Positions 58,976-61,969 of a stretch of DNA of 64,000 nt are shown in pieces (positions within the stretch are counted from its first letter, which is position 1; each line of letters starts with the position of its first letter). The notes under the pieces were generated by a model. That model saw only the letters and a list, made by a program, of their open reading frames with translations, was not told where the DNA came from and did no database searches. Source of the DNA: Maritalea sp. (GTDB lineage Bacteria > Pseudomonadota > Alphaproteobacteria > Rhizobiales > Devosiaceae); assembly GCF_051251695.1 (NCBI RefSeq), contig NZ_JBPOEU010000013.1, positions 37,924-101,923 on the forward strand. The letters run 5' to 3'. The position numbers and the translations under genes were made by a program.

Positions 58976-59118
58976 CAAAACCTCACTTCCTATAACTCCA
59001 CAGCGCTTTTGAAGCGCCGCGCCCAAACATCGAACCATTTACAACACCATGCGGCGCAGATAGAACAGCGCAATTGGACACATTTGTTTCGCATAATCAA
59101 CCAAAGAGGGCAAGTATC

Positions 59119-60171
59119 ATGAGCCAGAAGCTCAACGCCGCACTGCTGGGTGCATCCGGATATACGGGTGCTGATTTGATGCGATTAGGTGTCTTACATC
59201 CACATGTTCAATTTAAGGCCCTAACTGCAAACACCCATGCGGGCAAAGCCGTAGAGGACGTGTTTCCGCACTTAGGTGGGGTTGAATTGCCAACTTTGCA
59301 ACGGGCAGAAGAGCTAGATTGGGCAGAATTTGACGTTATTTTTTGCGGGTTGCCACACGCAACGAGCCAAAAAATTGTAAGTGAAATCATTACAAAAACC
59401 GACCGGCCCAAGATTGTGGATATGTCCGCTGACTTTCGCTTGAGAGACCCGGCGCAGTATAAAAACTGGTACGGCAATGACCATATTGACCCAAAACTGC
59501 AAGAAATCGCTGCCTACGGACTGACGGAACACAATCGCGACGCGATTCGGGAGAAGCGGATCATCGCTTGCCCTGGCTGTTACCCCACCGCTGTTCTGTT
59601 GGCATTGTTGCCCTTGGCCAAAGCCAATTTGATCAATGTGGACGCGATCATTGTGGATGCGAAATCCGGCGTAACTGGCGCGGGTAGGGGACTGAAACAA
59701 AATACACTCGCCGCCGAAGCAGGGGAAAGTCTTTCTCCTTATGCCGTCGGCGCCCATCGCCATACTGCCGAGTTGGAACAAGAACTCGGCGCCGTCGCCG
59801 GCAAAGAGATCAAAGTCAATTTCACCCCCCACCTTATCCCTATGAGTCGGGGCGAATTGATCACTGCGCACTTAGAGCTATCGAATGGCAAAACCGCGGC
59901 CGATTTGCGCAGTGCGCTTGAAACGGCTTATTCGAACGAGCCTTTTGTTAGGGTGTTGAGCGAAGGCAAAATGCCCTCAACCGGCATGGTGCGCGGCTCT
60001 AATTCGTGCGTTATCAATGTGTTTGAAGACCGCATTCCGGGTAGAGCAATAGTGATCGCCGCGCTTGATAATTTGGTCAAGGGTAGTGCCGGGCAGGCGC
60101 TACAAAACTTCAACGTCGCGTTCGGTTTTGAAGAAACAACAGGCTTAAGCCAACAACCAATGTTCCCTTAA
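59119..60171 (+). CDS. argC: N-acetyl-gamma-glutamyl-phosphate reductase
   Basis: GASGYTG, LPH, PGCYPT, SG.TGAGR and DNLVKG.AGQA motifs. Confidence 0.96.
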   Translation: MSQKLNAALLGASGYTGADLMRLGVLHPHVQFKALTANTHAGKAVEDVFPHLGGVELPTLQRAEELDWAEFDVIFCGLPHATSQKIVSEIITKTDRPKIVDMSADFRLRDPAQYKNWYGNDHIDPKLQEIAAYGLTEHNRDAIREKRIIACPGCYPTAVLLALLPLAKANLINVDAIIVDAKSGVTGAGRGLKQNTLAAEAGESLSPYAVGAHRHTAELEQELGAVAGKEIKVNFTPHLIPMSRGELITAHLELSNGKTAADLRSALETAYSNEPFVRVLSEGKMPSTGMVRGSNSCVINVFEDRIPGRAIVIAALDNLVKGSAGQALQNFNVAFGFEETTGLSQQPMFP

Positions 60172-60232
60172 GTTCAATTGCTTACCACTCAAAGCAGAAT
60201 CATTTTGGCAACATCTTGAATCATTTTGTGAA

Positions 60233-60387
60233 CAGCGCTAACCTTTCAAAAGGTTCAGCGCTGCCTGCTGCGTGCGTCCCGTTGGGATTGGTGAAAGCGC
60301 TTTCTGTACTTTGCAAATCGTCAATCATTGCGACGATGTGTTGGCAATGCACGCACTGACAAATTGATCGTCGCCAATGGGACGAAT
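60233..60387 (+). other. Candidate structured cis-regulatory leader upstream of the PF20066-like gene
   Basis: Hairpin CAGCGCT-AACCTT/AAGGTT-C-AGCGCTG (60233-63), hairpin ATCGTC/GACGAT, and an 11-bp pairing of 60275-85 with 60374-84 that covers the RBS region. Confidence 0.45.
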
Positions 60388-61074
60388 ATGTATACTGAAG
60401 AACAGATTAAGGGCTACGCGAAAGCCTTGCGCAACGCGCTGTCATCGCGAAATTCAGAATTTTCTCACTCAGATTGCTTGGAAATCATTGCAGAAACGGT
60501 CGGCGAGAAAAGCTGGAACCATCTGAGCGCAAATTTGCGGAAAACGCCCAATGAATGTCGAAATAACCAAATTCCCGACGGCTGGTCCTTTATTGGACGG
60601 GATCATCTGGAATGCTACAATGCTCGACTTGAAGGGGAGGCCCACGCCAAGGAAATGGTGATTGACTGCATCGAAGCGCGTGCCAACACGTTTGCTTCGC
60701 TTATGCAGTTCATTTCTGCAAAAACATATTTGGGAAGTCATATACGAATGGCCGCAGAAGTTGCGACGCGAAACGCTGGGCCCACAAGCCTGTGGATGCG
60801 CGTTGATGGAAAGCCGAATAGCACGCTCGCATTCGACAACATGGTCGACGTGGCGCCCTATCGAGCGCTCGAAGGCACCAACGAATGGACACCGCTAGAG
60901 CTGGTGCTGGACGTGCCCGACGGTGCAGATATCGTCAACTTTGGTTGTATGTTGTCTGGCAGCGGCATGGCCCGGTTTCGCAACATCAAGTTTGAAAAAG
61001 TGGACAATTCGGTCCCGGTGTCTGGTGGACGAAAATATGGTGGTGATGAACCAACAAACTTGGGACTGAACTAA
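60388..61074 (+). CDS. Fusion of a 'glyoxalase superfamily' N-terminal domain (PF20066-like) and a C-terminal beta-sandwich, CBM-like domain
   Basis: AKALR.AL......SHSDCLE.IA...G...WN.LSA at the N-terminus. The C-terminal LMQ.I.A..Y.G...R...LWMRVDG...LAFDNM....GT.EW....LVLDVP....FG..L.G.G is a domain type seen in AraC/peptidase fusions. Assignments are from pattern recall. Confidence 0.7.
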   Translation: MYTEEQIKGYAKALRNALSSRNSEFSHSDCLEIIAETVGEKSWNHLSANLRKTPNECRNNQIPDGWSFIGRDHLECYNARLEGEAHAKEMVIDCIEARANTFASLMQFISAKTYLGSHIRMAAEVATRNAGPTSLWMRVDGKPNSTLAFDNMVDVAPYRALEGTNEWTPLELVLDVPDGADIVNFGCMLSGSGMARFRNIKFEKVDNSVPVSGGRKYGGDEPTNLGLN

Positions 61075-61075
61075 T

Positions 61076-61597
61076 TCACCCAAACAAACTCAATTGCGGA
61101 AGCTCGGCGTTATCAACGGCGGGCTTTTCTGCTTTTTTCTTAGGCTTTGGTTTCGACGCTGGTTTCTCAATCGCTTGATTTGGTGTAATTTTTGCCTCTA
61201 GCGATTGAGATGAAATCATCGCCAGCACGTCGGCACTTAAGGTTTCAAGCAATTGCGCATATGCCGCTTTTCCTTGCACGCGAAGCGCTTCACCGCTTTT
61301 ACTTAGGATGAAATGTTTCGCCCGCGCATCGCGCTTGCACGGCTTTACCCGCACCAATTTGCGCTTTTCCAACTTGTCCATCATCGCACTGGCTGAAGCT
61401 TTGTTGACGCCCATAGCGGTTACCAAATCATGCAGATGCTGGCCGTGAAAATCATCAGCCGTGCTAAGTACTTCTTGTTCTTTGATTGCGCTTAAATATT
61501 CGAATTCGCTGTAACTTAGCCCCAGCGTCGAGCCATGTTTCATCCAGTGGCGATGGGCCTGCCGGTGCAGTGTTTCCAAATGATCGGCGATATTCAT
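61076..61597 (-). CDS. MarR-family regulator with a Lys/Pro-rich tail
   Basis: LS.SEFEYL, MGVNKASASAM..KLE.R.LV and DARAK...L...G motifs. Confidence 0.8.
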   Translation of the reverse strand: MNIADHLETLHRQAHRHWMKHGSTLGLSYSEFEYLSAIKEQEVLSTADDFHGQHLHDLVTAMGVNKASASAMMDKLEKRKLVRVKPCKRDARAKHFILSKSGEALRVQGKAAYAQLLETLSADVLAMISSQSLEAKITPNQAIEKPASKPKPKKKAEKPAVDNAELPQLSLFG

Positions 61598-61613
61598 ATG
61601 CAATCCAAAATTT

Positions 61614-61744: not shown

Positions 61745-61969
61745 CTAGCAGCCAATTTTCTTTCGAATTTTTTGAACGTCAGCAAGTGATTTGCAAACAT
61801 TCTCGCAAGGAATTCCATCTCCGTCGCCATCTGCTCTCGGGTGGCTTCCTTCGCACCAGTTTTTAACGGCTTGTTGGCAAGTCGAGTAGCTTTTGCAAGT
61901 GGCAGCCTGGGCTGAGGTTGTGCTTAGAAATAGTGCCAATATGAATGTCGTAAAAATACACTTTTGCAT
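61745..61969 (-). CDS. Secreted Excalibur calcium-binding domain protein
   Basis: Signal peptide; C....TC.......RADGDGDGIPCE motif; RBS AGGAG. Confidence 0.85.
   Translation of the reverse strand: MQKCIFTTFILALFLSTTSAQAATCKSYSTCQQAVKNWCEGSHPRADGDGDGIPCENVCKSLADVQKIRKKIGC

Follow-up and report, generated by a model that had tools for sequence, protein, structure and literature searches.

A conserved, pseudoknotted leader RNA before PF20066-domain genes, a candidate translational regulator of riboswitch type

The question raised by this locus is what occupies the 216-nucleotide (nt) spacer between argC (59074-60171, + strand) and a gene for a 228-amino-acid (aa) protein with a PF20066 domain in Maritalea sp. 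(assembly GCF_051251695.1). The window, that is, the whole stretch of DNA analysed, is 64,000 nt long (contig NZ_JBPOEU010000013.1, 37,924 to 101,923), and coordinates refer to it unless a locus is named. An earlier reading of these letters (the original prediction) had proposed that the spacer holds a conserved cis-regulatory RNA with alternative pairings over the ribosome-binding site (RBS), possibly bound by the small N-terminal domain of the downstream protein. We are nearly certain that the PF20066-domain gene has 60250-60390 as its 5' untranslated leader and that this leader is a structured cis-regulatory RNA acting on translation; in this the original prediction is strongly supported by covariation, phylogenetic breadth and a fixed place between promoter and start codon. 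As to what triggers it, we favour, with about even confidence, an undescribed translational leader of riboswitch type whose sensor domain binds a small molecule.

The relatives of the protein within the same family all have a similar stretch of 130-150 nt running to the start codon. Two covariance models were used, R1 built from 11 leaders and the broader R2 built from 101, and they score the window leader at 124.6 and 92.5 bits, respectively, this being the only copy in its own genome. The parts of the leader are as follows.

60250-60390, + strand: entire leader RNA, with its predicted 5' end, up to and including the ATG, delimited by full-length covariance-model matches.
60251-60266, + strand: helix P0, AGGU (60251-54) with GCCU (60263-66), which encloses the 5' strand of P1.
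60257-60301, + strand: helix P1, AGCGCU (60257-62) with AGCGCU (60296-301), from covariation.
60267-60276, + strand: conserved junction J, GCUGCGUGCG, whose GCGUGC (60270-75) is the 5' strand of a long-range pseudoknot.
60277-60287, + strand: hairpin P2, UCCC (60277-80), GUU loop and GGGA (60284-87), from covariation.
60290-60295, + strand: unpaired, invariant GGUGAA block, present in nearly all of the 101 aligned leaders.
60302-60329, + strand: variable linker with the anti-RBS segment AUCGUC (60317-22), from linker:RBS complementarity.
60330-60374, + strand: helix P5, GCGACGAU (60330-37) with AUCGUCGC (60367-74), enclosing P4, from covariation.
Within 60330-60374, + strand: helix P4, GUUGG (60340-44) with CUGAC (60356-60), and its loop CAAUGCACGCA (60345-55), from covariation.
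60379-60390, + strand: Shine-Dalgarno-like GGGACGA (60379-85) and start codon ATG (60388-90), read from the sequence.

The main count was made on 45 model-aligned leaders, over six helices (two of them pseudoknots) and 32 pairs. Standard pairs fill 92.8% of the cells, a share that falls to 35-40% if the partners are shifted by 1-3 columns; two-sided changes occur in 27 of the 32 pairs, and none of 500 shuffles reached the observed values. The 101 leaders, which come from several phyla, gave 92.3% paired cells and two-sided changes in 28 of 32 pairs. Covariation among homologous leaders was the check proposed for the original prediction, and two-sided changes in 27-28 of the 32 pairs are what it returned. 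Moreover, an unbiased scan of all column pairs found these helices only and no competitors, with the P1 pairs showing the highest mutual information. Many positions alternate between G-C, A-U and G-U, and therefore only a sense-strand RNA fits.

Taken helix by helix, two-sided changes were found in all six pairs of P1 (94-95% of cells paired), the three modelled pairs of P2, all eight pairs of P5 and three to four of the five pairs of P4. P0 is paired in 92-94% of cells and both of its variable pairs change on both sides; since P0 crosses P1, the two form an H-type pseudoknot. The second pseudoknot joins the junction GCGUGC (60270-75) to GCACGC in the P4 loop (60349-54). In the unbiased set (A4) it is paired in 96% of cells and five of its six pairs change on both sides, for example GCUCGC/GCGAGC, GUGGGC/GCCCA, GCUUGC/GCAAGC and GUCUGC/GCAGAC; its columns are nearly invariant in the set of 101 leaders because the pattern used for collecting them fixed these positions. 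Both P0 and this J-L4 pseudoknot covary though neither was part of the covariance model. The unpaired blocks CCUGC(C/U)GC, GGUGAA (with the rare variants GGCGAA and GGCAAA) and CAAUGC are almost invariant, within a junction consensus CCUGC(C/U)GCNYGC and a P4-loop consensus CAAUGC-RYGC-A. The blocks that the original prediction had named, GCCTGCYGC, GGTGAA and TTGGCAATGC, indeed make up the core conserved in over 150 homologous leaders, and every sequence feature that it named lies where it had been placed. According to this, the first ~52 nt are predicted to be a compact sensor domain made of the P0/P1 pseudoknot, the P2 hairpin, the unpaired junction and GGUGAA. A conserved, structured aptamer domain with covariation in a 5' leader, by which riboswitches are recognised, was thus found.

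The leader is widespread. At the family level, 52 of 151 genomes contain one full-length R1 match; at the order level 27 of 151 genomes have one, scattered over many families, and in a phylum-wide sample R2 matches 16 of 151 genomes, the strong matches being nearly all in Alphaproteobacteria. An exact-pattern scan with one genome per species revealed at least 120 stretches in Alpha-, Beta- and Gammaproteobacteria and Actinomycetota, and most of the named records were confirmed by the model (L094, where L numbers denote loci, was not). Among the matches listed are Devosia, Rhizobium, Ensifer, Mesorhizobium, Bosea, Hyphomicrobium, Pseudovibrio, Sphingomonas, Hyphomonadaceae and Rhodobacteraceae (Alphaproteobacteria), Caldimonas and Pandoraea (Betaproteobacteria), several Pseudomonas species, Kosakonia and Enterobacter (Gammaproteobacteria), and Cellulomonas, Williamsia, Actinoplanes and Desertihabitans (Actinomycetota). 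Model matches under about 31 bits (L071, L073, L074, L211-L215 and L218) lay inside coding regions and were dropped. Plasmids of Agrobacterium and Rhizobium also carry the motif, for instance directly 3' of repABC on a pAt plasmid. The motif is nearly absent from viruses, with a single exact-pattern match in 2.9 million viral contigs, on which ground a phage or anti-defence origin was rejected. Some genomes have tandem leader-plus-gene pairs (L037, 612-750 and 1501-1640; L100, 3991-4127 and 4734-4874). In L131, a record titled Gordonia sp. IEGM753, the leader and its gene, which encodes an N-domain-VOC fusion, are nearly identical to Pseudomonas versions, which suggests a very recent transfer or a mislabelled or contaminated assembly.

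The original prediction could not assign the RNA to an Rfam family, and neither could we. A search of the 4227 models of Rfam 15 over window positions 59000-61500 (E<=10) gave two chance matches of 16 bits only. Beyond the window, 28 diverse examples were searched: 20 diverse alphaproteobacterial loci gave no match (E<=0.1), and gammaproteobacterial, betaproteobacterial, actinobacterial and plasmid examples gave nothing at the motif (E<=1). These searches rule out a known Rfam 15 family as the identity of the leader.

Two further features lie around the 5' end of the RNA.

60216-60244, + strand: predicted sigma-70-type promoter read from the sequence, with -35 box TTGAAT (60216-21), a 17-nt spacer and -10 box TAACCT (60239-44).
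60233-60263, + strand: genome-specific inverted repeat, covering the -10 box and reaching 13 nt into the RNA.

In 36 of 55 homologous leaders there is a TTGACA/TAnnnT-like pair whose -10 box stops 4-8 nt short of where the model begins, and this conserved distance places the predicted transcript start at about 60250-52; transcription thus probably starts 5-6 nt after the sigma-70-like -10 box. The original prediction had made the hairpin at 60233-63 part of the leader. It is indeed strong (-18.1 kcal/mol, z -6.3 against shuffles), but the predicted -10 box lies in its 5' arm, the conserved 5' strand of P0/P1 makes up its 3' arm, and orthologous leaders within the genus do not have it. As the predicted start leaves the 5' arm outside the transcript, this hairpin is probably only half transcribed; it could be an operator, or a structure of argC read-through transcripts only. 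We rejected it as a part of the RNA or as the argC terminator, since it overlaps the -10 box, has no U-tract and is genome-specific. A leader peptide or upstream open reading frame (ORF) was also rejected, as the sole ORF across the leader (60216-60359, TTG start) begins inside the promoter and is not conserved. The 11-nt direct repeat GAATCATTTTG occurs at 60187-60197 and 60218-60228, 31 nt apart, with the second copy overlapping the predicted -35 box, and could be a duplicated promoter piece or a pair of operator half-sites.

How the leader would act on translation can be read from its 3' part. The RBS lies directly 3' of P5, and no terminator-like site was found in the leader or elsewhere between 60172 and 60388. 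In the minimum-free-energy (MFE) folds the RBS is paired in 44 of the 45 homologous leaders, 30 times with the linker, and the complementarity of linker and RBS (helix P6) exceeds that of shuffles (mean z -1.9, with 29 of 45 leaders below -1.5). In folds made to leave the RBS unpaired, the linker's commonest partners are the 5' strands of P5 and P4 (19 of 45), and its complementarity to these strands has a mean z of -1.27, compared to +0.24 for the 3' strands used as a control. The conserved masking of the RBS would therefore be a P6 helix stacked under P5 and P4. This is not the helix that the original prediction had put over the RBS: its pairing of 60275-85 with 60374-84 is real in the window, where the duplex (-23.3 kcal/mol, z -5.2) belongs to the MFE fold, but its mean z is -0.47 over the 45 homologues, and +1.5, -1.4, +1.3 and +0.25 in the four closest orthologues. 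Being unconserved even in the nearest orthologues, it was discarded as a family-wide switch. The competing CCAA/TTGGC pairing is a match of 4-5 nt to which the comparison lends no support. The two local hairpins of the original prediction fared better, TCCC/GGGA being the conserved covarying helix P2 and ATCGTC/GACGAT the alternative hairpin between the linker and the 5' strand of P5. We propose that in the default fold of most members the RBS would be hidden by pairing with the linker. In a state A, P6, P5 and P4 would be formed, with the P4 loop docked on the sensor domain and the RBS masked; in a state B, the hairpin of the linker with the P5 5' strand would replace P4, P5 and the pseudoknot, and the RBS would be freer. 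The RNA would toggle between the two, the docking of the P4 loop on the sensor domain being what decides.

The genes behind the leader are the other source of evidence about its function. In the window there is one:

60388-61074, + strand: regulated gene, 228 aa, with the PF20066 N-terminal three-helix domain (residues 3-55) and a CBM-like beta-sandwich.

The Pfam match of its product is to PF20066 'Glyoxalase_8', residues 3-55 only. Its AlphaFold2 (AF2) model has a pLDDT (predicted local distance difference test) of 78, and Foldseek against the PDB found CBM4/16/22 and a hyaluronan-binding module (E about 1e-7). Just downstream lies a convergent MarR-family gene (61076-61603). Farther on, a small ORF on the - strand (61745-61969, 74 aa) begins like a signal peptide and weakly matches the Excalibur calcium-binding motif (E 9e-4, under the Pfam cut-off).

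Every strong match to the leader ends at a start codon, and about 90% of the regulated genes begin with the same domain of ~50 aa (the N-domain; consensus K..AK.LR..L...Hs.aLE..A.Q.G..DWN.L.A), which consists of three helices in the AF2 models. The C-terminal parts vary: the canonical PF20066 part, Glyoxalase_7 and PF00903 VOC, pentapeptide repeats, LON substrate-binding, DUF3471 and, in the window, the CBM-like module. The N-domain is fused to at least seven unrelated C-terminal domains (window gene 60388-61074; L055, L064, L121, L090 and L086), while Pfam treats it merely as the front of 'Glyoxalase_8'. The canonical PF20066 C-terminal part is modelled as a small beta-barrel and not as a VOC fold. 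The other leaders stand before genes for MATE efflux pumps without the N-domain, in at least nine cases (L072, L083, L088, L102, L112, L117, L128, L140 and L206). MATE and canonical PF20066 genes also share operons behind one leader, in either order, and genes for YfcG-like glutathione S-transferases (GSTs) lie 3' of PF20066 genes in three loci.

The link between domain and leader also holds in reverse. When 30 loci were picked by protein profile alone, 29 had the leader; the product of the exception (L232, 1486-1896) does not have the first ~13 residues of the domain, and the gene is perhaps a degenerating copy. Each of the roughly 130 N-domain genes examined has its own leader or is in an operon behind one. 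The Maritalea genome contains a second, divergent N-domain-like gene on another contig (C60:36881-37036, locus L019), which scores 24 bits to PF20066 and has KNY in place of DWN; the covariance-model search of this genome found no leader RNA at it.

Several of these data argue for a small-molecule trigger. The sensor core is complex and deeply conserved and has invariant unpaired bases, the split into a conserved aptamer and a variable platform is classical, and the leader precedes MATE pumps that do not have the N-domain, in a regulon with a detoxification flavour. What points to a toxic compound as the probable ligand is the make-up of the regulon: MATE exporters, VOC/bleomycin-resistance-like, pentapeptide-repeat and other binding-domain proteins, and Nu-class GSTs. 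There are, however, a number of points that weigh against this reading. The ligand is hypothetical, and both the RNA itself and the place where its transcription starts are predictions from sequence. The lone leader folds no better than shuffles (z -1.9 for 60172-60420 and -0.4 for 60250-60392), so that the case for function must rest on comparison, and the two-state platform has moderate support (mean z -1.3 to -1.9). Furthermore, to find one domain in about 90% of the regulated genes, and that domain nearly never leaderless (29 of 30), is unusual for metabolite riboswitches, and such a strict linkage fits protein autoregulation at least as well.

According to this last possibility, the same RNA and the same RBS-masking platform would be triggered by the PF20066 N-domain, which would bind its own leader, and MATE leaders in trans, and so repress or activate translation. 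We consider it unlikely on balance, though a serious candidate, because domain and RNA almost never occur apart, in 29 of the 30 loci chosen by protein as in all of the about 130 genes. The N-domain is, moreover, all that the otherwise unrelated proteins (VOC, pentapeptide, LON substrate-binding, DUF3471, CBM-like and small beta-barrel) have in common, and some operons have the order 'regulator first, pump second' (L095, L110 and L152). A genome with a MATE-linked leader and no N-domain gene would speak decisively against protein binding; such genomes were sought and none was found among those checked, since each one with a MATE-only leader also has an N-domain gene, either with its own leader or in the same operon. 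On the other hand, the N-domain is nearly neutral (its net charge averages +1.3 and is 0 in the window protein), and we found no significant solved structure or fold relative for the N-domain or for the canonical PF20066 protein, nor any detectable kin of the domain among known RNA-binding folds. A core of ~100 nt with two pseudoknots, kept across phyla, exceeds the needs of most protein operators; most loci have a single gene, so that the 'regulator' would control itself alone, and where one genome has several paralogues that differ in the C-terminal domain, they would act on one another's leaders. If the protein were the trigger, a ligand on the variable C-terminal domain could release the RNA, and the synthesis of a stoichiometric binder or of a pump would then scale with the toxin. 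The leader and the N-domain together would in that case be a portable RNA-protein feedback module, an idea that we hold still more tentatively, in which the interchangeable C-terminal domain, on taking up a toxin or another ligand, would let go of the RNA. If true, N-domain proteins would be one-component drug sensors or sequestrators at the level of translation, the RNA-operator counterpart of MerR/TipA-type regulators, and the module would have spread across phyla by horizontal transfer.

It is rather improbable that the trigger is of another kind (a general RNA-binding protein, an RNase, a small RNA or temperature), or that the leader is an mRNA stabiliser or translation enhancer without a specific signal. 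The structure and position of the leader are certain and its trigger is not, and an RBS hidden in the MFE fold of 44 of 45 leaders is also what RNA thermometers and small-RNA-activated leaders have. However, invariant unpaired stretches and two tertiary pairings kept from Actinomycetota to Proteobacteria suggest a specific binding pocket over simple melting, and no conserved partner small RNA or factor was seen in the neighbourhoods. Finally, it is very improbable that the conservation stems from an element of the DNA (such as an operator, recombination site or single-strand element of a plasmid) or came about with a recent horizontal spread, for although the motif travels with promoter and gene over phyla and on plasmids, and a genome-specific DNA palindrome covers the -10 box in the window, compensatory changes preserve six helices despite sequence divergence, the many G-U pairs would be C-A mismatches on the opposite strand, so that only single-stranded sense RNA explains them, and the motif always lies between promoter and start codon.

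A literature search, which included full text (PF20066; riboswitch candidates with glyoxalase, MATE or bleomycin resistance; the discovery papers of Breaker and Weinberg), found no description of the leader. A 2026 preprint (10.64898/2026.10.21.760802) clusters millions of intergenic motifs, with one different-looking cluster, perhaps akin to the leader, before glyoxalase, monooxygenase and NmrA genes; it may contain the leader RNA without comment.

If this reading of the leader holds, structured regulatory RNAs have gained a new class, a fairly widespread one with an unusually elaborate fold, present in hundreds of species, from the plant-associated plasmids of Agrobacterium and Rhizobium to Pseudomonas and actinomycetes. 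The leader also offers direct access to a domain that has so far been known only from the front of the 'glyoxalase superfamily protein'. To identify its trigger would be to discover either a ligand new to riboswitches, which might be a natural toxin or antibiotic, or an RNA-binding domain of a new kind that brings portable feedback.

Several known systems resemble the PF20066 leader. SAM-II, preQ1-II, guanidine-III and orphan candidates share with it the place in a 5' leader, a conserved pseudoknotted sensor domain, no terminator, a variable covarying platform (in the PF20066 leader a predicted one) ending at the RBS and a regulon flavoured with detoxification and efflux. Compared to SAM-II, preQ1-II and guanidine-III, however, it is unrelated in sequence and fold (with no Rfam 15 match), much larger (~140 nt, in two domains joined by a loop-junction pseudoknot), and the genes under it are dominated by one protein domain. 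Guanidine-IV (the mepA motif) also precedes MATE efflux genes, and a loop-loop or loop-junction tertiary pairing decides expression there, as the docking of the P4 loop would here, but it is a short transcriptional ON switch, mainly of Firmicutes, with a kissing loop to the terminator. The PF20066 leader matched no Rfam model, has no terminator-like site in 60172-60388, contains a different conserved core and is found mainly in Alphaproteobacteria, with MATE genes a minority. In the autoregulatory leaders (ribosomal-protein, PyrR and ThrRS operators), a structured leader nearly always stands before one protein or protein domain and its RBS is masked, as here; unlike them, the PF20066 N-domain has no known RNA-binding fold and the leader also precedes genes without the domain. 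The ZTP riboswitch (pfl motif) consists of two subdomains separated by a linker variable in length and sequence, with a long-range pseudoknot that controls the platform. The PF20066 leader, which matched no Rfam model and so not that of ZTP either, differs from it in conserved nucleotides, helices and genes, and the likeness between them is one of design only.
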